The notes under the pieces were generated by a model. It worked only from the letters and a program-made list of their open reading frames with translations, made no database searches and was not told the origin of the DNA. A DNA stretch of 64,000 nucleotides from Patescibacteria group bacterium (lineage in GTDB: Bacteria; Patescibacteriota; Patescibacteriia; UBA1558; GWA2-36-10): NCBI GenBank assembly GCA_041650755.1, contig JBAZKN010000003.1, forward strand, positions 18,060-82,059, in the 5' to 3' direction. This document shows positions 2,012 through 18,866 of the stretch, one piece after another. The position numbers and the translations under genes were made by a program. The stretch's first letter is position 1, and the number at the start of each line of letters is the position of its first letter.

Positions 2012-2371
2012 CCGGTGACTTATCGAGAACAGCTACGGACTTCATTCCCTGGTTTAGGGGGTGTTGTCCGTTTTTTTGTCAATATTTACAAAAAAACCAA
2101 CTTGTAGTAATGTTAGATTAAATACGGGGGAATAATGTAAAAAGGCGAAAAATCGCATAAAAAGAATGGGGGTGACAAATTATTTATGAAAAACGCAGGC
2201 ACAATAGGTGTCGCTAAACCAATCAAACAATCCAAGAAAACACCACGTTTACGAGTAATAAAAATTACTCGGAATACTGAATGCTCTATTAATCAATTTT
2301 AAATAAGATTTAATAACGATCTAATTTAATAATTAACGGAGCATTATTCCCCCCAGTTTGAGTGTTATTAA

Positions 2372-3403
2372 ATGTTTGTGCCTAAATATCTTTATATTTT
2401 TTTAACCGAGAATTGCAACCTCAATTGTCGACATTGTTATGGTGATTTCTCAAAAAATAAAAAGGTCAAAAACTTAAATTTGCCAGAATGGCAAAAAATA
2501 TTTGAACAATGCGCAAGTCTGCGTATTTTTTATTATGTAATTTCTGGAGGCGAACCAACAACCCACCCGCAATTTAAAGAGCTGGTTGAATATCTATCTA
2601 AATCAAATCAATATTTTGCCTTAGTCACCAATGGTCACTTTAACAAAAATATTGAAGATTTGCTTATAAAAAATAAAAAACATATTATTGAGCTAAAATT
2701 TTCTTTGGACGGATATGATTTTGATACTTATAATTATCTACGCCAAATAAATAATAGGCTACTATTTGATAATTTTATCGCCAGAATAAAAAGGTTTTCT
2801 CGGGCTGGCGTAAAAATTTCCCTAGGTATAAATATCCATAGCCGAAATATCAATCACATAAAAAAATTCAGCAAATTTATAAATAGCCTTGGACCTCAAC
2901 ACATAGAAATATCCACTATTGCCAATACTGGCAGGGCAAAATTATTGCCCATAAAAGACAAGAATATTTCCCTAAAACAAATAAAAAAATTACAGGAACA
3001 ATTCACTTTATATCTGGATAAAAAAATCACTACCAGTTTTGTTGATATGCCATTCAATCACAGCCGTTTTGGTTTTAGCTGCCCAGCCATCACTGATTTT
3101 ATGGCGATCAGCAGCCGGGGCATATTACTGCCTTGCCCCCTGTTTAATTCGCCTGACATAAAAAAATACTGCCATCATCTAAATGCTCACAATCTTGGCC
3201 TCAAGAAAGTTTTAAGTAGTCCGGTCTTAAAAAAATTATACTTGGCCAAATTAACACCCTGTCTATATAGAGAGCGCGGCTGCCACAATGCCAAAAATTG
3301 CCAACGCTGCCTGGCTCAAAGCTTGATGAAGGGAAACCCCCAAACGCCACCTGACTTTTGTTTGCAATATAAAAAAATTCTATTTCAAAAAAATGCTGTA
3401 TAA
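2372..3403 (+). CDS. radical SAM enzyme with C-terminal SPASM-like cysteine-rich domain
   Basis: CNLNCRHC (CxxxCxxC) at aa 15-22; GGEPT; C-terminal Cys cluster CPLF..CHH..CLYRERGCHNAKNCQRC. Confidence 0.8.
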   Translation: MFVPKYLYIFLTENCNLNCRHCYGDFSKNKKVKNLNLPEWQKIFEQCASLRIFYYVISGGEPTTHPQFKELVEYLSKSNQYFALVTNGHFNKNIEDLLIKNKKHIIELKFSLDGYDFDTYNYLRQINNRLLFDNFIARIKRFSRAGVKISLGINIHSRNINHIKKFSKFINSLGPQHIEISTIANTGRAKLLPIKDKNISLKQIKKLQEQFTLYLDKKITTSFVDMPFNHSRFGFSCPAITDFMAISSRGILLPCPLFNSPDIKKYCHHLNAHNLGLKKVLSSPVLKKLYLAKLTPCLYRERGCHNAKNCQRCLAQSLMKGNPQTPPDFCLQYKKILFQKNAV

Positions 3404-3704
3404 ATGGCAAAACCACGTTAAGTGGCGCAAAGAAAAAAAATCTGTTTTGGTATGTAACTGCCAAACTACTCAGATTTTTGAATTACCCTTAAAATACTCC
3501 GGCATATGCAAATCCTTAGATCGTAGTTACCGAATGCCGAAGAAATATAATGATCTACTCTCGGACTTACTAGAGCTCAAACTTCTTAAAAAAGTATAGC
3601 CTATTTTGCCGGGGTGTTTTATTTTCACCAAAAATATTGTATAATATAACTACTGGTAAAATAAAAATTTTTAATATAAAGACAAAGATTACAAACAAAA
3701 AAAT

Positions 3705-4112
3705 ATGGAACCATTTTATCGCAAAATTTACGGCCAAACTTGGCAACTAATAAAACAAAATCTACATCTACTATTCTTCGGGCTGTTTGCTTCACTCTTG
3801 GGTTTCAATGAAATCAAGATGATAATCAACTGGCAAGAGTCCAGCCCAGATCTAGTAAGTAATGGCCTGGCTAATTTATGGCTCTATCTCAAGATCATTG
3901 TGGTCAATGGCATTAATCTGCAAAACATGGACCCTTTTGTAGCATCCATCGGCCTGTTTATCCTGTTTGGCATTATTCTGGTGCTGTCCACCTGCTCCCA
4001 AGGCGCACTGATGTATAGCGCAGCTGAAAAAAATAAATCTGCTCAAGGCAAAAAGAAAATGAACAGTGGATTACAAATTGCCCTGCCAGAACACAATAGT
4101 ATCGAAGGCTGA
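3705..4112 (+). CDS. membrane protein, hypothetical
   Basis: 135 aa with 3-4 hydrophobic segments; downstream of the rSAM gene. Confidence 0.35.
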   Translation: MEPFYRKIYGQTWQLIKQNLHLLFFGLFASLLGFNEIKMIINWQESSPDLVSNGLANLWLYLKIIVVNGINLQNMDPFVASIGLFILFGIILVLSTCSQGALMYSAAEKNKSAQGKKKMNSGLQIALPEHNSIEG

Positions 4113-4388
4113 CCTAAAAGGCTAAAGCTATTCAGATTTTCGTCAGTAATATTAATTCATCCACAGCCTCTAATGCGGGACTGGCTCTGGAGAGGCATTC
4201 ATACTATAATGATAATATGGAAAAAAGGGGATCAGAATTACTAAAGAAAAATGAGAGTAAATATAGTGAGTTTTTTATTTTTAAAAAAAATATTAGCCAG
4301 GGGGATAATCATATTAATTTTGATCATAATCTAGGTGATGAATCTTTTTTTTGGATTGTAGCGGACTCTAGAGCAGATTTTAAAAATA

Positions 4389-5315
4389 TTGCAACAGATC
4401 ACAATGGCTAATTGGAAAAATATTCTCGAGGAACTAAATGCGAATGGAAGTAATTTTGATATTATTAGAAGATCTTATTTAAAAAAACTAAGCAAGTTAA
4501 CGGGTAGGAATGTAATCGCTTATTATAGTGGCTGGCTGCAGAAAAACGCACCGGATTTGCGTTTTTCTCTCTCTATTAATGACAATGATAAAAATGGTTT
4601 TATGAATGCGCTCGCTGGAGTGAATTGTAGCAAGGGCCTAGATTTAGTTCTTCATACTCCGGGTGGCGATGTTGCGGCTACTGAATCAATTATTGATTAC
4701 TTGAAAAGCAAATTTGAAGATATTAGAGTTATTGTGCCTCAACTTGCTATGTCTGGGGGCACTATGATAGCGTGCTGTGCCTCTAGGATTATTATGGGTA
4801 AACATTCAAGCCTTGGTCCAATCGATCCTCAAATTGGTGGCTTACCAGCCCATGGCGTTGTAGAGGAATTCCTGCGTGCCTATGAAGAGATAAAAGCCGA
4901 CCCTGTTAAGCAGGCAGTCTGGGCTCCAATTATACAAAAATATCACCCTACTTTTATTGGAGAGTGTGAGAAAGCAATTGAATGGTCACAAAAAATAGCG
5001 GAAAATTGTTTGCGAGACAGAATGTTTAAGGGTCAAGCTGATGCTAATGAAAAGGTAAAAAAGATAATTGATGAACTCACTGATCACTCAATTAGTTTAT
5101 CTCATTCTAGACATCTCTCGTTTAAGAAATGTAGTGAGCTGGGATTTATGGTTGATGATTTGGAGAGTGATAGTAAGTTGCAAGATGCTGTGCTTAGTGT
5201 GCATCATTCTTTTATTCATACATTAACATCGACCCCAGCGATAAAAATTATTGAAAATCATAATGGTGTAGCTTTCATACAAAGCGTGCCCCAATACTTA
5301 ATGAATAGAAACTAA
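4389..5315 (+). CDS. ClpP/crotonase-fold serine peptidase, S49/SDH-family-like
   Basis: 308 aa; LHTPGGDVAATESII and AMSGGTMIACCA segments resemble SppA/SDH Clp-fold peptidases; family assignment from memory. Confidence 0.5.
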   Translation: MQQITMANWKNILEELNANGSNFDIIRRSYLKKLSKLTGRNVIAYYSGWLQKNAPDLRFSLSINDNDKNGFMNALAGVNCSKGLDLVLHTPGGDVAATESIIDYLKSKFEDIRVIVPQLAMSGGTMIACCASRIIMGKHSSLGPIDPQIGGLPAHGVVEEFLRAYEEIKADPVKQAVWAPIIQKYHPTFIGECEKAIEWSQKIAENCLRDRMFKGQADANEKVKKIIDELTDHSISLSHSRHLSFKKCSELGFMVDDLESDSKLQDAVLSVHHSFIHTLTSTPAIKIIENHNGVAFIQSVPQYLMNRN

Positions 5316-6631
5316 ATCTGTAAAGTAATTTTTCGATTAATATAAACCAGCTTACTTTTCAGTAGCGACAACAACTCTCGTTTTTCCGAAATATTTCCAT
5401 TTTGCAGCAGATATTTGGCGTAGGTTCTTACGTCAATTTTTTTACCTTTAATTTTTTCAGGATTACCGCCGAGCACAGATGTTTGTAGATTGTTTAATCT
5501 TCTTACTTCATCCTCAAATTTCCCTTGAACTCCAAGTTGATCAATTTCAACCTTGTCAATTATTTTTGCCAATTCGTTTATGAGTGCTTCTTCCCTGATA
5601 TAAGTGTTTTTACATTCGGGGTTTTTGGCTCTGGTGCAACCGTAGTAAATATATTTGGCGGTCGTTCCGTCAGTCAATTTTTTGAATTTTTCTTGTCCGG
5701 TGATACTGGATCCGCACAGGCCACAAACCATGAGTTTGGTAAAGGCAAATTCTTTGTTTTTGGCGCCGCATGTAGCCTCGATTGTTTTGATGTTGGCTTG
5801 TGCCTGATCAAAAAGTTTTTGAGTGATAATCGGTTTGTGCTTTCCTTGATACCACTTGCCACTGTTTTTCGGGTACTCAAACATACCGTAGTAGAACGGG
5901 TTTCTCAGCAGATTATATATTCCGCTCAGAGCCAGGGTTTTTTGACCTCTGGTTTTAAAATTAAGATCAAACTTCAGCCAGTTGTATATCTTTCTACCGC
6001 TCCAACGCTCATTGGCGACTTTTTCGAATACTTGTTTGATTATTGGTGCGCGCAGGGGATCAACGATGATCTGGCACTTCTTATCCATTCGGTTTTGGTT
6101 CAGATAGCCCAAAGGCGCCATGCCTGGCCACAAACCCATTTCTACCCTCGTTCTCATGCCTCTTTTGACGTTTTCTCCGCGATGATCGTTTTCCAGTTTG
6201 GCGGTACTTCCCAAAATCATCAGCATGAATTTTTCATTTGGGTTATTGGTGAATGTTTGTCCGTGGGTTCTTATTTCCGCCAACAATCCTTGATCCATAA
6301 GATCGACGATGGCGCCTAAGTCACCGGCGTTACGACTTAAACGATCCGGCGCCCAAGTGATGATGCCGTTGAATCTGCCGGTTCTAATGTCACCCAAAAG
6401 CTCATTAAAGATTTCCCGCTGTCCCGTGTCCTTGGCCGAGTGACTTTCCCGTTTGATTTCAACAATATCCAAATTTTCCCGAACGGCAATATCCAACATT
6501 TCCTTAACTTGGGAATCGATGGACAGCACCTGGCGCTCCTCGGATTCCGTTGATTTTCTCGCGTAAAGGCAGTATTTGATTTTTTGTTCCGTTGTGGTTG
6601 CGTTTTCCATACAACAACATTGATGACGCAA
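5312..6631 (-). CDS. large serine recombinase (resolvase catalytic domain + recombinase domain + zinc ribbon)
   Basis: N-terminal YARKSTESEERQ..SIDSQ catalytic-serine context, DRLSRN, C-terminal CGLCGS..YYGC zinc ribbon; likely start MENATT at 6610; convergent with the protease gene. Confidence 0.85.
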   Translation of the reverse strand: MRHQCCCMENATTTEQKIKYCLYARKSTESEERQVLSIDSQVKEMLDIAVRENLDIVEIKRESHSAKDTGQREIFNELLGDIRTGRFNGIITWAPDRLSRNAGDLGAIVDLMDQGLLAEIRTHGQTFTNNPNEKFMLMILGSTAKLENDHRGENVKRGMRTRVEMGLWPGMAPLGYLNQNRMDKKCQIIVDPLRAPIIKQVFEKVANERWSGRKIYNWLKFDLNFKTRGQKTLALSGIYNLLRNPFYYGMFEYPKNSGKWYQGKHKPIITQKLFDQAQANIKTIEATCGAKNKEFAFTKLMVCGLCGSSITGQEKFKKLTDGTTAKYIYYGCTRAKNPECKNTYIREEALINELAKIIDKVEIDQLGVQGKFEDEVRRLNNLQTSVLGGNPEKIKGKKIDVRTYAKYLLQNGNISEKRELLSLLKSKLVYINRKITLQI

Positions 6632-6782: not shown

Positions 6783-7718
6783 ATGCAAATGCAAATGATA
6801 TTTATGACTCAAAAAAAGGTTAAAAAAACCGGAAAAAAAGACACCCTTACATTCATTGATCTGTTTGCCGGAATAGGAGGTTTTCACGTTGCCTTTCACA
6901 ATGCCGGAGCGGATTGTGTTTTTGTTTCGGAGTGGGATGAGTTCGCTCAAAAAACATACAGACACAATTTTTACAAAGTGTCTCCGGAGGTTTTCGATCT
7001 CGGCAATTTTGTCGGAGACATCACCAAGGTTGATCCGAAAAAAATTCCCGATTTTGACGTTTTGACCGCCGGGTTTCCTTGTCAGCCTTTTTCTCAGGCG
7101 GGATTTAAAAAAGGATTCAATGAAACTCGCGGCACTTTATTTTTCGATATCGCCAAAATAATAAAAGAAAAGAAACCAAAAGCTTTTTTTCTAGAAAACG
7201 TCAGAGGCCTGTACAATCACGACGGAGGCAAAACTTTCAAAACGATCAAGAGAATAATCACCGAAGACTTGGGTTATTCGTTTTTTTCACAAATCGTCAA
7301 AGCGTCCGATTTCGGTTTGCCGCAACACCGCCCACGTCTTTTCATGGTCGGATTTAAAAACAAGAAGATTGACTTTAAATTTCCCGAGCCCGCCAAAAGT
7401 CTGAAATACACCATGTCGGATATTTTCAAGGGCAAGTGCAACAAAGAAATCGGCTACACCTTGCGTGTGGGTGGTCGCGGAAGTAAAATTGACGATCGCA
7501 GAAATTGGGACGCATATATTGTCGATGGAAAGGTCGTTCAGCTCGGTCCGAACGAGGGATTGAAAATGCAGGGCTTTCCCGGTTGGTTCAAATTTCCTTC
7601 GGGGCTTTCTCCCGTGCAATCCATGAAGCAACTCGGTAATTCCGTTGCGGTACCCGCCATTGAGGCCGTTGCGGGAGAAATCGTCAAAACATTGAAAAAA
7701 TATGGGAACAAAAAATAA
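6783..7718 (+). CDS. DNA (cytosine-5)-methyltransferase
   Basis: Motif I FIDLFAGIGGF, motif IV GFPCQPFSQAG, motif VI ENVRGL, motif X QLGNSVAVP; likely start at M8 (6804). Confidence 0.9.
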   Translation: MQMQMIFMTQKKVKKTGKKDTLTFIDLFAGIGGFHVAFHNAGADCVFVSEWDEFAQKTYRHNFYKVSPEVFDLGNFVGDITKVDPKKIPDFDVLTAGFPCQPFSQAGFKKGFNETRGTLFFDIAKIIKEKKPKAFFLENVRGLYNHDGGKTFKTIKRIITEDLGYSFFSQIVKASDFGLPQHRPRLFMVGFKNKKIDFKFPEPAKSLKYTMSDIFKGKCNKEIGYTLRVGGRGSKIDDRRNWDAYIVDGKVVQLGPNEGLKMQGFPGWFKFPSGLSPVQSMKQLGNSVAVPAIEAVAGEIVKTLKKYGNKK

Positions 7719-8790
7719 CAAAGGCGAATGGTCGGAGTTATACGCATTTTTGAAAATTCTTGAAGAAAGAAAACTCTTCGCCGCGGACAAAAATTTGGAA
7801 ATAATCGAAGGAAAGTTTTTTGTGTTTCACAAAATCATCAGGGAAGAGAAAGATGAACCCGTGAAGATTTATGACATTTCCGAATCGCCGACGCAAATTT
7901 TGATCACAGACGAAAACGGAAAATTGTTGAAAGAATTAGATTCCGCCGGACTGAAAGAAAAAACTTTGAAGATTTTTAAAAAAATAAAGAGCGAGAAAAG
8001 CAGTTCTTTCGGGATTCCCGAAGCGAGCAAATTGATGAAGGAACTTCTGTGCACCAAGGTGAAAGCGGGCAGCGGCAAAAAAGCCGACCTGGTGGCCGTC
8101 ATTTACGACAGAATTTCAAATACCATGCCGATGTTGGGGTTTTCCGTCAAATCGATGGTGGGAGGAGCGTCGACTTTATTGAATCCGGGCAAGACAACAA
8201 ACTTCATTTACGAAATCAAAGGGTTCAAGGGCAATGTCGATGAAGTTAATCACATTGACACCAAATCTCAAATTCGGGATCGCGTGAGAAAAATCGTCGA
8301 GCAAGGCGGGTTGTTCGAGTATGTCGGCGTTTCAAATGAACAGTTTGAATTCAACATGAAAATGATCGATACGGCTTTGCCCGAGTTTGTCGCGCAAATG
8401 CTTTTCAATTTTTTCTCAAATTCCAACAGAACGATGTCGGATTTGACGGAAGAACTTTCCGGGGATGAGAACATAACCAAAAAATTCGGTTTGTCGCTGA
8501 CCAATTACGAATACAAAGTGAAAAATTTTCTGGATGCGGTGGCTTTGGGTATGGTTCCAAGCAAACCTTGGGACGGATTTTCAAAAGCCCACGGCGGCTA
8601 TATCGTCGTAAAACAAAACGGTGAAGTCGTTTGCTACCATCTTTACAACCGAGACGAGTTTCGGTCGTATCTGTACGAGAACACCAAGTTTGACGCCGCC
8701 AGTACGACTCGTTACGATTACGGCAAATTGTATGAAAGAGACGGGAGATTGTTTTTCAATCTTAACTTGCAAATCAGATTTGTGAAATAA
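7702..8790 (+). CDS. type II restriction endonuclease, HpaII-family-like
   Basis: 362 aa; overlaps the MTase stop by 17 nt and is followed by vsr, the same M-R-vsr order as the Haemophilus HpaII locus; N-terminal KGEWSELYAF; family membership recalled, not verified. Confidence 0.5.
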   Translation: MGTKNNKGEWSELYAFLKILEERKLFAADKNLEIIEGKFFVFHKIIREEKDEPVKIYDISESPTQILITDENGKLLKELDSAGLKEKTLKIFKKIKSEKSSSFGIPEASKLMKELLCTKVKAGSGKKADLVAVIYDRISNTMPMLGFSVKSMVGGASTLLNPGKTTNFIYEIKGFKGNVDEVNHIDTKSQIRDRVRKIVEQGGLFEYVGVSNEQFEFNMKMIDTALPEFVAQMLFNFFSNSNRTMSDLTEELSGDENITKKFGLSLTNYEYKVKNFLDAVALGMVPSKPWDGFSKAHGGYIVVKQNGEVVCYHLYNRDEFRSYLYENTKFDAASTTRYDYGKLYERDGRLFFNLNLQIRFVK

Positions 8791-8800
8791 CGGAATCATC

Positions 8801-9220
8801 ATGGCGGACATTTTCACAAGAAAAAAAAGAAGCGAAATAATGTCCAAAATAAAAGGCAAGGACAGCAAGATCGAAGTTGCCTTCAGAAAAAAGCTTTGGT
8901 CAAAAGGATTTCGTTACAGCAAAAATTCAAAAAATTATTTCGGAAAACCCGATCTGGCTTTGCCGAAGTACGAAACGGTCATTTTCGTCGATTCTTGTTT
9001 TTGGCACGGGTGTAAAAAACACGGCTCGATTCCGTCGACAAGAAAGAAGTTTTGGACGGAAAAAATAAATCGAAACAAAGCCAGAGACGGGGAAGTCGAC
9101 AGACATTATAAAAAGAAGGGATGGATCGTCATTCGGACATGGGAACACGAGATGCGTAAAAACCCCGACGAATTAATTGATAGGATTGTTTTGATTTTAA
9201 AAAATGTCTCCAGAGTTTAA
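8801..9220 (+). CDS. vsr: very short patch repair endonuclease
   Basis: 139 aa; FVDSCFWHGC motif; starts 10 nt after the REase stop. Confidence 0.85.
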   Translation: MADIFTRKKRSEIMSKIKGKDSKIEVAFRKKLWSKGFRYSKNSKNYFGKPDLALPKYETVIFVDSCFWHGCKKHGSIPSTRKKFWTEKINRNKARDGEVDRHYKKKGWIVIRTWEHEMRKNPDELIDRIVLILKNVSRV

Positions 9221-9377
9221 AACAGGTGGAATATTTTGAATAATTTAAACTAGAAGTATGAATAAAGAAACACCGGTTGAAAGTTTAGAGGTATGGCTAT
9301 CAAACAAACCATTTTGGGAAAAGTTTGTCTAGAAAATTAATCTTGAAAAGGAATTATTAACGGACGAAGATATTGAT

Positions 9378-11933
9378 TTGTGTTACAAATATTTATCCGA
9401 ACACTTGAGTTTGACAGATTCAATTTCCGACACTAAACCGGAGATATCTTTTAAGAATGAAATATTCACTGACACCGCAAACGCAGAATACGGACCTGTT
9501 TCGTGTGCTCAAAAAAAGAAAATCATTGAAGTTAAAGATTTTTCTGATGTTAACGCTATCTCTGGTACTTGCTCTATAAAATTTGGATCAAACTTAACTT
9601 TGATTTATGGCGGAAACGGTAGTGGTAAAAGCGGAGTTAGCAGACTTTTATGTAATGCTTGTTTTTCAAGGGGAGAGCGTGAGATTTTGCCAAATGTTAA
9701 AGTTGCTTCAATACCCGGACCGCAAGCAAAGGCCACTTTTGTTATTGATGACGGTTCCGGAAGCACACAAGATGTCGAGTATTCTCTTGGTGATAATATT
9801 GACGATCTTAAATGTTTCTCAGTCTTTGATTCAGAAAGTGTTTTGATACATCTTGATCAATCAAATAATGTTAACTTTACACCGGCACAGATAAAAATAT
9901 TTGATAAGGTTGCCGATACCATATCAAAACTTGAAGAGAAACTTCAGAATGAAAAAAATGAAAAGAAAAAGGATAATCCTTTCGCCTCAATGTTTTTATC
10001 TGATGATGCCACATCAGATACAGCGTTGTTTTGTAAAAACATAAGTGCGTCTACGGAAGTGGATGATTTTCTTAAACATGCAAATTTTAATGCAACAACA
10101 GACGAACCAAAAATATCGGATTTAAGCAAGCAGATTGATGAAAAGAAAAAGCTTGATATAACAAAAAAGAAAGCTCAGCTGGCATCGGATAGACAAAATT
10201 TAACAGCATTAAAATCTACACTGCAATCAACGGTTGATCGTTTCACTGAAGTTAAGAGAGATGCCATAAACAAAATAATTTCTGACATCACCGAAAAAAA
10301 GAAAATCGTTGAAAGTCTGAGCGTCCAAAGCTTCAACGATGGAATTATAAAAACTGTTGGTAGTCCTGAATGGAAAGCCCTTATAACAACAGCCAAGACT
10401 CTCTATGATAATGAAAAAGCAGCTAACGAGAATAACGATCTTGATAACTGCATCCTTTGTCATCAGAAATTATCATCTGATGCAAAAACTCTTTTTCAAA
10501 AATATTGGAAATTTCTCGAAAGCAAGGCAGAGTCGGAGCTTGCTTTGTTGGTGTCTCAACAAAGGTCTGCTTTAGAAGATCTTAAATCGGCAAAAACTTT
10601 GTATCCAAAATTTTTGGCAACGGATGCCGGTGTAAAAACACTGAATGAAGAAAATTCCACCTATCTGTCTGAGTTAAAAACACAATTTTCGGCCGTGTCT
10701 GATGTTCTTGATGATTGGATTGATAAACTTGGAAAATATGAGTCTGTCAGTACGGACGGCGTACCGACGATAAATTTAGAAAAAATTACCGAAATAGTAA
10801 ATGCAAAGACTACGGAAGAATCTAAACTTGTTGATCCGTCTGTTGAAATTGCCACACTTACCGCAAGGTTAAATTCTCTAAAACATAAAAAAGACGCTAC
10901 CGCCGTCAAAGATGCAGCTCTTGAGTATTTGTCTTTCTTGAAATGGTCATCAAAAACAAGCGGTGTCAGTTTCTCCGGTATTAAAATGGCTACTACCAAA
11001 AAACGAACTGAATCATTTTTGGTTCGTGTCGGAAATAGTTATAAAGGAGTATTTAATCAAGAATTAGCCAGTCTCGGTTGCGATTTTAATTTAGTAATGA
11101 ATACGAGCGGAGAGCAAGGAAATACCGTCAAAGAATATCGTTTAGATTTTGCAGAGGACTATAATCCCAGCCAGATATTGAGTGAGGGCGAACAAAACGC
11201 TTGTTCATTAGCCGACTTCCTCACTGAAGTTCAATTGGATAACAAAAATTGCGGTATTATTTTTGACGATCCTGTGACATCGCTTGATCATGAACGAAAA
11301 GATAAAATTGCCGAAAGACTGACGAAGGAGGCTAATCAGAGACAAGTATTAATTCTTACCCATGACATGGTGTTTATGAGCCAGCTCGTTAAATATGCAA
11401 ATAAATTTATTATTCCTTTCGTAGCTCACTGGATGAAAAAAGTTGATGGTATCCCTGGTTGCGTTGAAGACAATGCCAGTCCGAAGCTTGCAACATTAGC
11501 GAATTTAAAAGCCAAAGCACAAGAAGCGATCAAAGATATTAATACTCTCGATTCCACAACACAAGAGATCCATCTTGGATCAGCTTTTGATTATTTGCGT
11601 AGTGCTTGCGAGGCTTTAATCGAGGAAGTTTTGTTTGCCGGGACGATTCAAAGATATGATGATCATATCAAAGTGCAGAATTTAGAAGAAGTTGTCTTTG
11701 ATAAAGATTTGGCATTAAAAATTACCGACTTGCATGGAAGAATCTCAGGATTTTTATTAGCCCATAACCGTAGCGATTTACAGCGAGAAAATCCTCCTCA
11801 ATTGAGTGACTTTGAATCATTTCAGAAAGAATTCAATGAGCTTGAGACCAGCCTTCGATGCTCCTTAAAGACCGCTCGAAGCGAACGAAATCAAAGAAAA
11901 GAGGAAAAGGCTGCAGCTCAAGCTGGTTGGTAA
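9378..11933 (+). CDS. RloC/PrrC-like ABC-type ATPase with zinc-hook coiled coil; putative anticodon nuclease / defence ATPase
   Basis: Walker A GGNGSGKSG; ABC signature LSEGEQ; Walker B/D-loop IIFDDPVTSLD; H-loop LTHD; about 400 aa K/E-rich coiled-coil insertion with CILCH (CxxC) at its centre; C-terminal ~230-aa non-ATPase domain containing LRSACE (R-x3-E) and downstream His. Confidence 0.5.
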   Translation: MCYKYLSEHLSLTDSISDTKPEISFKNEIFTDTANAEYGPVSCAQKKKIIEVKDFSDVNAISGTCSIKFGSNLTLIYGGNGSGKSGVSRLLCNACFSRGEREILPNVKVASIPGPQAKATFVIDDGSGSTQDVEYSLGDNIDDLKCFSVFDSESVLIHLDQSNNVNFTPAQIKIFDKVADTISKLEEKLQNEKNEKKKDNPFASMFLSDDATSDTALFCKNISASTEVDDFLKHANFNATTDEPKISDLSKQIDEKKKLDITKKKAQLASDRQNLTALKSTLQSTVDRFTEVKRDAINKIISDITEKKKIVESLSVQSFNDGIIKTVGSPEWKALITTAKTLYDNEKAANENNDLDNCILCHQKLSSDAKTLFQKYWKFLESKAESELALLVSQQRSALEDLKSAKTLYPKFLATDAGVKTLNEENSTYLSELKTQFSAVSDVLDDWIDKLGKYESVSTDGVPTINLEKITEIVNAKTTEESKLVDPSVEIATLTARLNSLKHKKDATAVKDAALEYLSFLKWSSKTSGVSFSGIKMATTKKRTESFLVRVGNSYKGVFNQELASLGCDFNLVMNTSGEQGNTVKEYRLDFAEDYNPSQILSEGEQNACSLADFLTEVQLDNKNCGIIFDDPVTSLDHERKDKIAERLTKEANQRQVLILTHDMVFMSQLVKYANKFIIPFVAHWMKKVDGIPGCVEDNASPKLATLANLKAKAQEAIKDINTLDSTTQEIHLGSAFDYLRSACEALIEEVLFAGTIQRYDDHIKVQNLEEVVFDKDLALKITDLHGRISGFLLAHNRSDLQRENPPQLSDFESFQKEFNELETSLRCSLKTARSERNQRKEEKAAAQAGW

Positions 11934-12073
11934 TAGGAATTTATGTTAAGTGGTCGTACTTAAATTGAAATATTTAATTTTAAAATAAATTGTTGTAATT
12001 ATCCGTAGTTATTAAGATTATTACCTGTAGATAACTCAGCCTTCGCAAAAACCCTAACCTAAGCTAATATACG

Positions 12074-12094
12074 ATGGACATTTGTCCATTTTTT
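12074..12094 (+). terminator. rho-independent terminator after the RloC-like gene
   Basis: ATGGACA-TT-TGTCCAT perfect 7-bp hairpin followed by TTTTTT. Confidence 0.6.
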
Positions 12095-12294
12095 GGTTAA
12101 AATGTAATTGACAATTAAGTGACCTAAACCCGTCGTTTTCGGCGGGCATGGTCTCAAATCGTAACTCACATACAACCCGTCATTCAGGGCGTGAGTTACG
12201 TTATGCAGGGAAACTTGCATAGGGGCTTTAAAACCCTCCTGGTGGCGGGCTTTATGTTTGGCCCGCGTTTCCGGGAAAAGCGAAAGGAAACGTC

Positions 12295-13356
12295 ATGTCT
12301 TTAATCATCTCTCAGGGCGGAAGAAACGCCCGAAAAATCGACAAGACCGGTTTTGACAAGGAAGACTATCTGCAACAATACATTCGGGAAAATCCCGAAG
12401 CCATTCCGGTCTATGAAATCGCCCAAGACAAAAGGTTGTTTGTCGCCGCCCGTGAATTTCCGACCGAATCCGGTCCGATTGACGCGCTGGCCGTGGACAA
12501 AGACGGCGACATCTATGTCGTTGAAACCAAACTGTACAAAAACCCCGACAAAAGAACCGTTGTCGCCCAAGCGCTGGACTACGGCGCTTCGCTCTGGAAA
12601 CATTCCGGCGACTTTTCCGAATTTTTGAGCCTGCTTGACTCTGAAATTCAAGACAAATTCAATCTCACTTTTCCCGAAAAGGCAAAAGATTTTTTTGGTT
12701 TGACCGACGAGCAGTCAAGCGCCCAACTTGACGCCATGCAAAGAAATCTGCGCGAAGGCAATTTGAAGTTTGTCATTTTGATGGACTCAATGGAAGAAAG
12801 ACTCAAAGACCTCATAATCTATGTCAACCAAAACAGTCAGTTTGATATTTACGCCGTGGAATTGGAATACTACAAATTCAACGACTACGAAATCATGATT
12901 CCCAAGATTTTCGGGGTGGAAGTCAAAAAGAACGTCGGCACAACCGCAAACGCCAAAAGATTCAAATGGGACGAAGCCAAGTTTTTCAACTACGCCAAAC
13001 AAAACCTGTCCCAAGACATCTGTGATCAAGTGTTCAAGCTTTTCGCTTTCAGTAAAGACAAAGCTTCATCAATCAATTACGGCACCGGCAGTTATCCAGC
13101 ATTTTCACCCGTCTTTTCAAAGATAAGCGACAAATCGCTTTTCACTTTGACTTTGGACGGCGTTATCAGATTAAGCTTTAACTTTGAGTGGGCTTTTCGC
13201 GACAACGAAGCGTTGGCCAAAAAGTTCAACACCAGACTCAAAGAAATCGGAGTTATTATGCCCAAAGATTTTTTGCAGCTTCGTCCCAGCGTTGAATTCA
13301 AACAGTGGGGAAACAAGACGCAAGATATCATTAAAATAATAAAAGAATTAACATAA
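12295..13356 (+). CDS. PD-(D/E)xK nuclease-fold protein (NucS/DUF4263-like core), function unknown
   Basis: [21 protein letters not shown] = D..D/E-x-K restriction-endonuclease-like motif at aa 60-82; about 270-aa C-terminal extension without motifs; GC-richer than flanks. Confidence 0.45.
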
Positions 13357-13367
13357 CAAAAAACCAT

Positions 13368-13685
13368 ATGAAGAAATGTCCGTTTTGCGCCGAAGAAATC
13401 CAAGACGAAGCCGTCAAATGCAAACATTGCGGCAGCGATTTGGTCAAGCAGGAAAAGAGTGCGCCGCTTCAGGCCCAATCGATTTCCAATCCCAAGAGCG
13501 GGAAAAACAAGATGGTCGGCGGTTGCGCTTTGATCATCCTCGGCTTCATTATTGTTTTCTCAAGCGCTGCTTCCGGCGCTCAAGAAGGTTTAGGTTGGTT
13601 GGTGGTGCCGGCCGGCATGGCCATTTTGGCCGGATTGATAATTCTTTTGCTCGGCAAATTCGAAAATTGGTATCATTGGAAATAA
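13368..13685 (+). CDS. zinc-ribbon membrane protein
   Basis: N-terminal CPFC..(11)..CKHC zinc ribbon followed by two TM helices; 105 aa; starts 12 nt after upstream stop. Confidence 0.45.
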
Positions 13686-13724: not shown

Positions 13725-14309
13725 TCAAGTCGCGGTTTCATGCCCGTCCAGTTTTCGGTCGGGTTTTGAATTTTCTTCATTTTTGTCATCATTCGACTTT
13801 TTTGTATTGTCATCGGGATTTTTGTTTTTCAAAGTTTTTTCGATCTTTACCTGCTTGTTCAAGTTCGGATCACGCCAAGCGATCATCATGTCTTTTATTT
13901 TTTCTAAGCGCTCATTGGTCAGCAGACCCGCTTGATCATTTACCTGAATCGCATGGTTGTGATTGTGGGTGACTTTTTCCACGAATTCTTTGCTTCTGGT
14001 TTTCAGCCAAAACAAGACATAAGTGGGAACGCCGTCTTTGATTCCCTGAATGACTCTGCTTTGCGCCATGTCCGATATCAGCAAGGTGCCTTCTTTGCAA
14101 GCGTCTCTGACTTCGGCGGCGAATTTCCGGTCTTCTTGTGTCCAGCGATAAAAAGTGGAGGGATTGATACCAGATCTTAAGCAAGCCGTTGCGATAATCG
14201 GATTTTTTCGCAGTTCTTCAAGCAAGTCTTTTTTTATTCGACTTTTTCTTTTTTTGACGGTGATGGCCCGAGTTTTTGTCGGGTCCTTTTTTGGTTTGTT
14301 TATTGTCAT
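13725..14309 (-). CDS. HTH DNA-binding protein, phage terminase small-subunit-like
   Basis: N-terminal HTH IIATACLRSGINPSTFYRWTQEDRKFAAEV resembling terS-type HTH; K/D/E-rich tail; 4-nt overlap with upstream ParB-MTase gene. Confidence 0.35.
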   Translation of the reverse strand: MTINKPKKDPTKTRAITVKKRKSRIKKDLLEELRKNPIIATACLRSGINPSTFYRWTQEDRKFAAEVRDACKEGTLLISDMAQSRVIQGIKDGVPTYVLFWLKTRSKEFVEKVTHNHNHAIQVNDQAGLLTNERLEKIKDMMIAWRDPNLNKQVKIEKTLKNKNPDDNTKKSNDDKNEENSKPDRKLDGHETAT

Positions 14310-15703
14310 ATTTTTTTAGTTAACATCGGTTGGTTTATTTTTTTCGGTTTTTGTCCGGTTGTTTTTTCCCATCTTCGCAAAATCACCTGGGCATACACCG
14401 GTGACTTTTCCATCAAAAAGCAACGGCGCTTCATGGCGGTGGCGGCTATGAGCGTTGAACCCGAACCCCCGAACGGTTCGATTATGATGTCGTCTCGTTT
14501 GGTCAGCACTTTGACATAGGGGATGAGTATTTCAACGGGTTTGGTGCCAAAGATTATACCTTGCCCCGATGACTTTTGATCATCGGCTTTGTAACTGATG
14601 AAATCTGTCGGACAGATTTTTTTACCTTTTTCATAGCCTTCCCAGTGCGGTTTGCCGGAGATGGCAAACAAAGCGTTTTCGTATTCTTGTTGAAGCAAAG
14701 AATCGGCTTCTTGATCAACATTCAGTTCAATATCACCTTCGGTTCCCACCAAAGCGATATCGTGCTTGTTGAAGAATCGATGCTTGGCGGAAAATCCCTG
14801 GGTGCGGTTGGGCAAATGCCAAACAATGGTGTTTCGGTATTTCCAGTGTTTCTCCAGCTCGTTCCATATTATTTTTAGATTCTTGGGATTTTCAAAAACA
14901 ATGATGGAAAAGTCCGGTTTTTGAATTTTGGCGATATTAGTCATCCAAAGTTCGGTGAAGTTGTCGGGCAAAATATCGGTTTCCAAATATCGGCGGTTTT
15001 TCTTCACGCCAAAGCCGGTGGTGACCCCGTCCTTTTGTTTGGTTTTGCCTTTGAGATAATCAAGCAGGTAAGGAGGATCGGTAAGACACATGTCGGCTTT
15101 TTCATTGCCCATGAGTTTCAGGACATCGGCTTCAACGGTGCTGTCGCCACACATCAGTCTTGAACCGTTCAGTTCGTAGATGTCGCCTTTTTGCACGGAA
15201 ATGTTTTTGATGTCCAGTTTTGCCAATTCCTTGTTTAAATCAAACATTTCCGGTTCGCTTTCGAGTCCGAAAATTTCGTCCAGTTCTTCCGAGGAAAAAC
15301 CAACGTCTGAAAGCAGCGATTCGTCAAACTCGGCAAGCAGGGAATAATCGAATTCGCCGACATTTTTATTCAACCTGATATTGAGCTCTTTTTCTTTCTT
15401 TTCGTCGGGAATGTTCACATATACCACCGGGACTTCTTTGTAGCCCAAAGCTTTGGTGGCTTTCAGGCGCATGTGACCTCCAATCAGAATATTTTTGCGG
15501 TTTTCGGCCCCGTTGGCAATCAGCGGATCGCACAAGCCGAAGCGTCGTATCGATTCGGTCAGTTGTTCCATGGCTTCTTTATTATGTTTGCGGGGATTAT
15601 ACTCCGCCGGTTTCAACGTTGAGATCGGTAAATGAATGATTTTAAGATTGTTTGTTTCAGTCATAATTTTTTGATTAATTTTTAGCGATAAATAAAACGA
15701 CAC
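14306..15703 (-). CDS. ParB-like nuclease domain fused to beta-class DNA amino-methyltransferase (N6-adenine or N4-cytosine)
   Basis: N-terminal ParB/Srx motifs (LKPAEYNPRKH, IGGHMRLKA); motif IV CLTDPPY precedes motif I FGGSGST (beta-class order). Confidence 0.8.
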   Translation of the reverse strand: MSFYLSLKINQKIMTETNNLKIIHLPISTLKPAEYNPRKHNKEAMEQLTESIRRFGLCDPLIANGAENRKNILIGGHMRLKATKALGYKEVPVVYVNIPDEKKEKELNIRLNKNVGEFDYSLLAEFDESLLSDVGFSSEELDEIFGLESEPEMFDLNKELAKLDIKNISVQKGDIYELNGSRLMCGDSTVEADVLKLMGNEKADMCLTDPPYLLDYLKGKTKQKDGVTTGFGVKKNRRYLETDILPDNFTELWMTNIAKIQKPDFSIIVFENPKNLKIIWNELEKHWKYRNTIVWHLPNRTQGFSAKHRFFNKHDIALVGTEGDIELNVDQEADSLLQQEYENALFAISGKPHWEGYEKGKKICPTDFISYKADDQKSSGQGIIFGTKPVEILIPYVKVLTKRDDIIIEPFGGSGSTLIAATAMKRRCFLMEKSPVYAQVILRRWEKTTGQKPKKINQPMLTKKI

Positions 15704-17615: not shown

Positions 17616-18866
17616 TTACCCTCCAAATTTCCAGGTGACACCGGCCGAGATGACATGAACGTCGACTTCGTATTTTCCCGGTGCCAGGAAGCCGAAGTGT
17701 TTTTCAACTTCTCTTTTACCCCAGCCGTAGGTATAGCCGAGATCGAAATCCAAGTTGTCGTTCGGTCTGTATCCAAGGCCGAAAGAAATTCCCGGGCCGT
17801 CCACTTCCGGTGCGGTCGGCGTGGTGGTTTCCCGCGGAATGGCCGCGGTATGCCAGCAGACGCCGCTTCTCAAAAGCCACTTTTCGGTCAGCTCGTACTC
17901 GGCGCCGAGATGGAAGCTGAAGTTGTCATGCCAATTCAGCTTTTGGCCGTATTCAAGCAGCTCGCCGATTTTGGCCGTCATCTGTTTGGCCGCCGAATAG
18001 TCGTACCAGTTGGCGTCAGCCAGAATTCTCAACCTGTTATTCGGTTCAAACTTCAAGCCGAGTCCGAGTCTTCCCGGAAAGTAGACCGAAGCGGTCATGC
18101 CGTATTTTCCAAGAGGCAAGCCCAGCAGCTCCGGCTTGGTTGATCCTTTCAGGCGGACCTCCATGGGCAGACTGTAGGACGCGCCGACAGTCCATTGGTC
18201 GTTGAGCCGGTAGAGAATTCCGATTCCGCCACCCAGTCCGATGCCGTCAGCTTCAGCTTCCATACTTGCCATGTCCAGTCGAAAGTTTCCAAGTTGGAGA
18301 CTGCCGGCATTGATAAACTGGGCGTAGCCGATATTCAGGCTCAGTCCGACGGAGAGTTCATTATTGACCCGGTAGGCCATTGCCGGAACCAGCGAAGTCA
18401 GACTCAGCATTCCTTCTTTCCAGGGAAAGTCGCCGTCATACTTGCTGCCAAGACCGCCAACAACGTGCCAGCCCGCTCCAATCGTCAACCGGTCGTTCAG
18501 GCGTGTGGAAAATCCGCCGAAAGGCAGAGGGATGATTCCTCCCTCCGAATTTTTGGATAATTCTCGGCCGCATTCCGACCACTGATATGTCCCTTCGGCG
18601 ATAATTGATTCCATTCCGAGTTGTAGTGAAGTACGCTTGATGTTGCTTAACCCCGCAGGGTTGTAGTAGAACGCCGAAGCGTCTACCGGATCGGCGATTT
18701 GAGCACCGCACATTCCCATGGCTCTGGGACCGACACTGCCGCTGACGCGGTTGACTCCTCCGGCTATTGCCGAATTGACGGTCAACAAGACCAGCATAAA
18801 TACCGCAATCGTTATCTTTTTCATCGTTTGTCCTCCCTTGGTAAAGGGTTTCGGTTTAAGGTTCAT
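17616..18866 (-). CDS. FadL/TodX-family outer-membrane transporter for hydrophobic compounds
   Basis: Signal peptide MKKITIAVFMLVLLTVNSAIA (probable start 18824 preceded by AGGGAGG RBS); glycine/aromatic-rich beta-strand pattern and C-terminal WKFGG barrel terminus typical of the FadL/Toluene_X family; GC-rich. Confidence 0.7.
   Translation of the reverse strand: MNLKPKPFTKGGQTMKKITIAVFMLVLLTVNSAIAGGVNRVSGSVGPRAMGMCGAQIADPVDASAFYYNPAGLSNIKRTSLQLGMESIIAEGTYQWSECGRELSKNSEGGIIPLPFGGFSTRLNDRLTIGAGWHVVGGLGSKYDGDFPWKEGMLSLTSLVPAMAYRVNNELSVGLSLNIGYAQFINAGSLQLGNFRLDMASMEAEADGIGLGGGIGILYRLNDQWTVGASYSLPMEVRLKGSTKPELLGLPLGKYGMTASVYFPGRLGLGLKFEPNNRLRILADANWYDYSAAKQMTAKIGELLEYGQKLNWHDNFSFHLGAEYELTEKWLLRSGVCWHTAAIPRETTTPTAPEVDGPGISFGLGYRPNDNLDFDLGYTYGWGKREVEKHFGFLAPGKYEVDVHVISAGVTWKFGG

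Follow-up and report, generated by a model that had tools for sequence, protein, structure and literature searches.

Introduction

SAM-II and preQ1-II are pseudoknot-type cis-regulatory leaders, or riboswitches, and the CI RNA of P4 and the c4 RNAs of P1 and P7 are leader-derived phage immunity RNAs. LOOT RNAs, named for Latescibacteria, OD1, OP11 and TM7, are an orphan class of structured RNAs that was found by comparative genomics with strong covariation support; the motif reportedly comes from Patescibacteria and occurs in uncultivated candidate phyla. Here we describe a LOOT RNA in a 64,000 nt stretch of DNA (hereafter the window; positions 18,060 to 82,059 of contig JBAZKN010000003.1 from a Patescibacteria group bacterium), where it lies upstream of a gene for a 353-amino-acid nuclease-like protein. 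An initial annotation of this locus, made from the sequence alone, had noticed a GC-rich leader with three hairpins. It had proposed a riboregulator, a recombination site or a protein operator for the leader, and for the protein either an independent defence nuclease or an effector partner of the ATPase encoded upstream.

LOOT RNAs were introduced by Weinberg et al. 2017 (PMC5737381). The Rfam 14 paper (PMC7779021) depicts LOOT as a ‘metagenomic-based RNA’, and Rivas 2020 (PMC7657543) assigns it ~43 base pairs and six helices. Within the literature searched, no function was found for LOOT, and later papers give structure statistics only.

The RNA family found at this locus was already catalogued, and the window contains no new ATPase–nuclease system. 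New here for this orphan RNA class are a pseudoknot, a predicted promoter with a conserved 5′ motif, and its location in an accessory slot of prophage-like elements. The best explanation, which we hold with somewhat better than even confidence, is that LOOT serves as a cis-acting, promoter-proximal leader of a variable cargo slot, and that the gene for the 353-residue protein is interchangeable cargo encoding a stand-alone nuclease. LOOT becomes testable through three features: it heads the variable slot beside an integrase gene, it apparently has a promoter to itself, and the 3′ strand of its pseudoknot has an alternative partner. Furthermore, LOOT slots mark where to look for genes of defence or superinfection exclusion in the hard-to-study Patescibacteria, and the nuclease family described below, with more than 1700 homologues and no Pfam family, is one candidate from such slots.

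A LOOT RNA precedes a predicted nuclease gene

When the whole 64,000 nt window was scanned with Rfam, the single match other than tRNAs was to LOOT RNA (RF03000) at 12121-12237 on the forward strand. This match scores 83.3 bits (gathering score 46.4; E = 3e-16) and covers model positions 1-121 of 121, and the leader of the nuclease gene is a copy of this already catalogued RNA. It comprises the hairpins P1 (12121-12153), P2 (12160-12200), P3 (12202-12221) and P4 (12222-12237). In the model alignment, the window copy carries the conserved P1 internal loop CCUAAA / GCAUGG and a GAAA loop on P3, so that a score above the threshold is accompanied by four hairpins with covariation, the conserved P1 loop and GNRA-type loops. 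An Rfam scan had been recommended in the initial annotation, which had not foreseen that the leader belongs to a known RNA family. The label Patescibacteria group bacterium, carried by a protein from the window contig, fits the occurrence of LOOT in candidate phyla.

The three inverted repeats reported initially are all present. They pair 12155-12169 with 12191-12205 (I2; core CGTAACTCAC/GTGAGTTACG at 12160-12169 / 12191-12200), 12202-12207 with 12216-12221 (I19; TATGCA/TGCATA) and 12245-12250 with 12261-12266 (I18; GCGGGC/GCCCGC). The first two correspond to P2 and P3 of LOOT, but the picture of three hairpins was incomplete, because P1 and P4 had been overlooked and the element has five helices and a pseudoknot in all. 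The third hairpin is a real repeat but represents an alternative pairing of one pseudoknot strand. Likewise, the leader is GC-rich only in relative terms: its GC content is 0.485 (12100-12299) compared with 0.315 in the preceding stretch (11900-12099), whereas that of the gene itself is 0.42-0.545.

Further copies were collected with DNA patterns. A first pattern (CCTAANCC..GGCATGG..AAANC) was run on viral contigs and later replaced; only three of its 19 matches were LOOT, and one matched contig held a fourth LOOT at another position. A second, longer pattern, which adds P3 and the tail that follows P4 (fixed elements GGCATGG, GT..T....GGAAAC and GGG.TTT.TG), was searched against one-genome-per-species contigs and yielded at least 119 loci. 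All counts given below for these RNA-first loci are among the matches listed. Approximately 111 of the 119 are true LOOT, almost all in Patescibacteria metagenome-assembled genomes (MAGs), and the other eight are chance matches in coding sequence that include every cultured species. Four LOOT loci (L050, L091, L107 and L140) are labelled Gammaproteobacteria.

Conserved structure of LOOT RNAs and a predicted pseudoknot

The RNA from 12111 to 12300 is predicted to fold at -76 kcal/mol, compared with -53.8 +/- 3.9 kcal/mol for 200 shuffled sequences (z = -5.7; 0 of 200 as good). Covariation at homologous loci, a check that had been called for at the outset, supports the helices. Specifically, in 117 sequences 87.3% of the cells in the helices tested are paired, compared with 69.8% after shuffling, and in 34 of 44 pairs both partners vary. 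The scan pattern fixed several motifs, including the GGG of the tail, and the invariance of these fixed motifs in the alignment is by construction, because their bases were set by the pattern; the covarying columns of the pseudoknot were left free.

The conserved tail (CCUGGUGGCGGGCUUUAUG; 12238..12256, forward strand) lies 3′ of P4, outside the Rfam model, and is preserved in eight diverse sequences, whose alignment gives the consensus YCUGGYGGCGGGCUUUNUG. Its G-rich part is complementary to the apical loop of P2. The resulting pseudoknot joins 12176-12182 of the loop to 12243-12249 of the tail and is 99.5% paired across the 117 sequences. Both partners vary in four of its seven pairs; one pair occurs as GC 74, AU 25, CG 11 and UG 5 times, and another as AU 76 and GC 35 times. 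A possible extension by four pairs (12185-12188 with 12238-12241) is 81% paired. A local CCC/GGG pairing at the apex of P2, present in the minimum-energy fold, was rejected, and the pseudoknot is preferred to it because the apex pairing shows no covariation. These comparisons demonstrate a conserved predicted RNA structure in which the pseudoknot is included.

The P2 helix also distinguishes two closely related loci. Relative to the locus L013, whose nuclease is 96% identical, most differences in the 200 nt leader are confined to P2 (12160-12200; 367-407 in L013), where GTAACTCAC/GTGAGTTAC is exchanged for GAACAGTAC/GTACTGTTC with full compensation. This swap suggests either recombination between LOOT variants or selection on the sequence of the helix. 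In some copies, an extra small hairpin of GNRA or UNCG type (e.g. GCUCGAAAGAGC or CCCCGCAAGGGG) is inserted between P1 and the 5′ motif described below. Such loci include L042, L073, L086, L099, L106, L122, L124 and L133, and the window copy is without this hairpin.

A predicted promoter and a conserved 5′ motif

The ATPase gene upstream of LOOT ends at an intrinsic-terminator-like hairpin followed by a T-run (ATGGACA-TT-TGTCCAT, with 7 nt perfect arms, I6; 12073..12095, forward strand), as had been noticed initially. A promoter-like site on the same strand (12075..12103) matches at ten of 12 positions, with a -35 element TGGACA at 12075-12080, a 17 nt spacer and a -10 element TAAAAT at 12098-12103. 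It is followed by a conserved 5′ motif, ACAATTAAGT (12111..12120, forward strand; consensus ACAAYTGAAT), which also lies outside the Rfam model. With two or fewer mismatches and within 60 nt upstream of P1, this motif is found in 81 of 112 loci, at 10-34 nt from P1. On visual inspection, most of the loci listed have a -10-like hexamer, often TGnTATAAT, that precedes the motif by 6-8 nt. From these signals we infer that LOOT is transcribed from its own promoter, with a start near 12111. The pseudoknot, the 5′ motif with its -10 box and the recognition of the third hairpin as an alternative pairing of the pseudoknot strand are additions to the Rfam model.

LOOT RNAs stand at the head of a variable gene slot

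At 112 of 115 loci, the tail is followed within 200 nt by the start of a same-strand open reading frame (ORF) of at least 45 codons. The distance from tail to ORF has a median of 36 nt (interquartile range 27-41) and is 38 nt in the window; such a median is too short for a separate promoter. LOOT therefore has the arrangement of a cis-regulatory leader, namely a conserved structured domain in the 5′ untranslated region directly upstream of a same-strand gene, with a promoter-like site upstream.

The genes in this position vary widely. Genes of LOOT loci form 882 clusters, and most immediate downstream genes belong to none of the recurring ones. An N-terminal hydrophobic segment is present in 47% of LOOT-downstream proteins, and Pfam matches at LOOT cargo are to Zn ribbons, DNA methylases, Imm_superinfect, Lipoprotein_Ltp, Cap15, SNase and T5orf172. 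A homologue of the large serine recombinase found in the window is encoded in the 8-kb block around 47 of 116 LOOT copies, mostly upstream and divergent, and at nine loci the divergent recombinase gene is at a constant 154-197 nt upstream of LOOT. Other neighbours are a ParB-methylase (24 loci), a small-terminase-like protein (TerS; 18) and a terminase-large-like protein (TerL; 17), and at least one of these three or the recombinase is nearby at 63 of 116 loci (54%). Because the downstream genes are diverse, the recombinase lies upstream and phage genes are nearby, LOOT is the head of a short, variable accessory-gene slot between the integrase and packaging genes of phage-like elements in Patescibacteria MAGs.

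A possible alternative pairing of the tail

The tail has a second potential partner, the downstream arm D1 (GCCCGC-GUUU-CCGGG; 12261..12275, forward strand). In the minimum-energy fold the two form a hairpin at 12238-12275. The 5′ arm of the third inverted repeat is the pseudoknot strand itself, and with the addition of CCUGG/CCGGG the repeat extends to this longer hairpin, which competes for the tail. A duplex of -14 kcal/mol or better between the tail and downstream sequence is predicted at 43% of loci, compared with 4.5% of shuffled sequences and 16% of other-locus controls. Terminator-like sites follow LOOT at 19 of 112 loci (17%), compared with 4% in shuffles. At L076, L103 and L128, a tail-D1 helix overlaps a D1-D2(+U) helix, such that D1 is also half of a terminator-like hairpin; the predicted pairings at these three loci fit classical three-helix logic.

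These features can be combined in a simple model. LOOT folds into four hairpins and the pseudoknot between P2 loop and 3′ tail, with the RNA ending ~38 nt before the start codon, and most likely acts in cis. Two partners would compete for the tail, the P2 loop and the downstream stretch that forms the third hairpin, and which of them wins would influence either how far transcription reads through or how the cargo gene is translated. A role for LOOT as a leader is, in our judgement, somewhat more likely than not, and a riboregulator remains the most likely of the roles initially listed. The switch in tail pairing is a tentative proposal that we consider less likely than not, because the regulated genes have no common function. 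A grander version, in which LOOT and the serine recombinase constitute an integron-like platform of Patescibacteria phages, with a fixed module of promoter and RNA beside the integrase, unrelated cargo swapped at a precise junction ~36 nt after the RNA and expression gated by pseudoknot or hairpin, is improbable as a whole. The architecture and the diversity of cargo that it requires are observed, whereas the route of exchange and the RNA switching are conjectural.

SAM-II and preQ1-II are among the nearest parallels. As in those RNAs, LOOT has a compact 5′-leader fold whose 3′ strand closes a pseudoknot or pairs downstream, and at some loci the downstream segment is half of a terminator. In contrast to them, LOOT has no known ligand, its regulated genes are diverse, and an expression platform is recognizable in only part of the family.

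Near the start codon of the window gene, a weak Shine-Dalgarno-like AGGAA and the ATG occupy 12285..12297 (forward strand). The segment GGAAACG (12286-12292) can pair with CGTTTCC (12266-12272; I8), and modelling gave no sign that this pairing in the window depends on the state of the pseudoknot. The idea that LOOT substitutes for a Shine-Dalgarno sequence was dropped: such motifs are equally rare before LOOT-linked and other ORFs (8% versus 11%; 22% versus 22%), a comparison that is uninformative because the control set includes spurious ORFs. A 16-codon upstream ORF (12254-12304) begins with an ATG at 12254, at the conserved NTG of the tail, and overlaps the nuclease start in another frame. 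The NTG is probably not a general start codon, because the downstream ORFs of other loci are not consistently in frame with it.

A predicted PD-(D/E)xK nuclease as cargo

The ORF at 12295..13356 (forward strand; 353 codons, ATG start) is present as first described. Its predicted PD-(D/E)xK core also holds up, in that no variation occurs at D63, E77 and K79, nor at D68, G71, Y74 and T78, among 40 homologues that are 51-89% identical. At least 1762 full-length homologues exist, and neither a Pfam family or domain nor a PHROG family was matched by the protein. An AlphaFold2 model has the restriction-endonuclease-like alpha/beta fold, of NucS/Shedu type, which runs to approximately residue 206 and includes a helical insert (86-154); a separate alpha/beta domain similar to MotA-CTD/YdhG follows at ~227-352. 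The C-terminal region of ~270 residues that was initially set aside as unknown is thus predicted to contain part of the nuclease fold as well as this second domain, which may possibly bind DNA. In the BFVD fold library, the single significant match was to Gp54, an uncharacterized protein of Bacillus phage G.

A kinship with NucS or DUF4263 (Shedu) nucleases had been suggested at the start, and this holds for the predicted fold but not for family membership. NucS profiles align only with residues 22-82 and score well below their cutoffs (NucS_C, 14 bits versus 24; NF003270, 21.7 versus 216), and the DUF4263 domain was not matched by the protein. Because these scores fall far short of the family cutoffs, we file the protein neither as NucS nor as Shedu. 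Unlike NucS (PDB 2vld; PF01939), it has no NucS N-terminal domain; unlike the Shedu protein SduA (PDB 8ps4), it has no DUF4263 match; and it differs from both in having the helical insert and the MotA-CTD/YdhG-like C-terminal domain. The model places the protein in the PD-(D/E)xK superfamily, with a NucS/Shedu-like predicted core.

PADLOC matches the protein weakly to PDC-S11 (E = 2.3e-16). The lengths are similar (353 residues and 358 profile positions), but only the N-terminal two thirds align (residues 10-233 with profile positions 12-213). PDC systems are candidates nominated by ‘guilt-by-embedding’ and are not validated (PMC10855318). Of the two options raised initially, an independent defence nuclease is the better one, with the PDC-S11 match as candidate support. 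The most likely reading is that the protein works alone as a DNA nuclease in defence or exclusion, with nuclease activity and a defensive role both presumed.

LOOT and the nuclease are linked unequally

To describe the linkage from the protein side, we used 80 metagenomic loci that encode homologues of the nuclease, of which the 70 with at least 250 nt of upstream sequence enter the LOOT counts. An nhmmer profile of LOOT missed a copy at L157 that the Rfam model found, and 20 of 31 negative loci were therefore rechecked with Rfam. LOOT lies upstream on the same strand at 40 of the 70 loci (57%), in 25 cases within 80 nt and in the others with a small gene between. It was not found at the nuclease loci of Terrybacteria and Terriglobales. 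From the RNA side, the nuclease is encoded at only five of 119 loci (~5%). These unequal proportions indicate that the nuclease is a frequent cargo of LOOT slots rather than a specific partner of the RNA. The expectation that the leader is conserved with homologues of the protein is borne out in part, because 30 of the 70 loci are without LOOT and LOOT also precedes many unrelated genes.

Evaluation of alternative explanations

Several observations count against a cis-acting leader. A riboswitch would not usually stand before genes with so little function in common, and neither a ligand nor a protein partner is known for LOOT. Only about half of the loci have the alternative hairpin, and terminators follow LOOT at only 17%. 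In thermodynamic modelling, the start site of the window gene is equally accessible in both states (-0.01), and across the family the effect is small, with a shift above 0.15 at 16% against 4% of loci. The absence of LOOT from 30 of 70 nuclease homologue loci points in the same direction, and the promoter and transcript start of LOOT are themselves predictions. Finally, a terminator comes directly after LOOT at L035 and in one phage lineage (L025, L069, L090, L091 and L150), and at these loci LOOT may function in its own right.

This last point leads to the most serious competitor, that LOOT is a stand-alone, trans-acting phage small RNA (sRNA), for instance an immunity or anti-host RNA, with cargo that is merely downstream and expressed by read-through or otherwise. 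Rfam types RF03000 as Gene; sRNA, the 5′ end of LOOT is conserved and seems to be served by a separate promoter, and the genes that follow LOOT have no function in common. A terminator-like site occurs soon after LOOT at the 19 loci mentioned above, and the compensated swap of the P2 stem between near-identical elements looks as if its sequence carried specificity. LOOT resembles P4 CI and P1/P7 c4 in being a structured RNA at the 5′ end of a transcription unit of a temperate-phage-like element. In contrast to those RNAs, no downstream targets complementary to its loops or stems were found in the window, and no second complement of the P2 arms occurs there above chance (three matches, two being the arms themselves; 17 of 100 shuffles reach three). 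Moreover, the close same-strand ORF at 112 of 115 loci leaves no room for a separate promoter, most loci are without a terminator, and the conserved parts are structural junctions and the pseudoknot rather than exposed antisense loops. We regard an sRNA as a real but minority possibility, which fits better at loci with a terminator directly after LOOT. At L035, two LOOT copies (3643-3761, forward; 4275-4389, reverse) face each other ~500 nt apart on a 5-kb contig, with a clear intrinsic terminator, but no ORF, after the first. A function of the repeats as DNA, either as the attachment or recombination site of the serine recombinase or as an operator, seems highly improbable. LOOT is close to the recombinase gene at many loci, a conserved CTTTNTG is flanked by the tail and D1 as an inverted repeat, and two contigs, L009 and L010, begin inside LOOT. 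However, one position of the pseudoknot is most often a G-U pair (95 of 117), many changes are compensatory, and GNRA loops and a pseudoknot are features of RNA. Predicted duplexes are more stable for the sense strand than for its complement (pseudoknot, -20.3 versus -12.2 kcal/mol; tail/D1, -12.6 versus -9.4 kcal/mol), which points to RNA over a DNA palindrome, even though the G-rich tail biases this comparison somewhat. Genes of the element also continue on both sides of LOOT, which is therefore not the element end. The recombination site and operator suggested initially thus find little favour.

Two further alternatives would tie the nuclease more tightly to a partner. LOOT could be dedicated to it as a guide, activator or RNA antitoxin in a two-part system, a view encouraged by the 40 of 70 homologue loci with LOOT upstream, 25 of them within 80 nt, and by a linkage that persists to ~50% protein identity. 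This is very unlikely, since the nuclease is so rarely encoded at RNA-first loci, many unrelated proteins, about half of which begin with a hydrophobic segment, are encoded directly behind LOOT, and homologues without LOOT include those of Terrybacteria and Terriglobales; no variable, guide-like single-stranded segment was seen in LOOT either. The nuclease could instead be the effector of the RloC-like AAA_13 ATPase (9378..11933, forward strand; AAA_13, 1.4e-14) in a two-gene defence system, as had been proposed in the initial annotation. In the window and in the near-identical contig L008 the two genes are same-strand neighbours, and one of the 80 homologue loci, L190, has an AAA_13 homologue upstream (35% identity). 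In contrast, AAA_13 is absent from the other 79 loci and from L001-L007 and L011-L015, including the close nuclease homologues L011 (82% identity), L012 (62%) and L013, beside which there is no ATPase. Terminator-like and promoter-like sites separate the two genes, and they match different single-gene PADLOC candidates, PDC-S06 (2.1e-121, full length) for the ATPase and PDC-S11 for the nuclease. Furthermore, only 193 nt separate recombinase and LOOT at L011, where the window holds restriction-modification genes and the ATPase, and these genes therefore look like an insertion. The two-gene system is close to refuted, and the nuclease is independent of the ATPase.

Genomic context of the window and minor observations

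Upstream of LOOT, the window encodes a large serine recombinase, a phage-type integrase (5312..6631, reverse strand; phrog_95 integrase, 3e-65). Between it and LOOT lie, together with the AAA_13 gene, a Dcm methylase, an HpaII restriction enzyme and Vsr (6783..9220, forward strand), and 6783-11933 looks like a hotspot for the insertion of defence genes. The nuclease gene is followed by genes for a Zn-ribbon protein (13368-13685, forward strand), a small-terminase-like protein with a PHROG match (13725-14309, reverse strand) and a ParB-N6/N4 methylase (14306-15703, reverse strand), all of them neighbour types that recur at other LOOT loci.

The two contigs that begin inside LOOT, L009 and L010, are independent of each other, encode the identical nuclease and start at the equivalents of ~12229 and ~12199 in the window. 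Such starts would be expected if LOOT were common to co-existing variants of the element and broke their assemblies. At L012, only ~110 nt separate a tRNA gene (2042-2113) and the serine recombinase gene (end of 2226-3512), which suggests that this element is integrated at a tRNA gene.

An ORF at 17616-18866 (reverse strand) has a counterpart in L008 with Pfam matches to Toluene_X and an OMP beta-barrel, on a contig labelled Patescibacteria. Patescibacteria are generally not known to have an outer membrane, and given this beta-barrel ORF the window contig may be mis-binned or its label wrong. Finally, a contig from IMG/VR that was retrieved through a chance pattern match, L020, contains a group I intron at 2188-2426 (106.5 bits) that is unrelated to LOOT.

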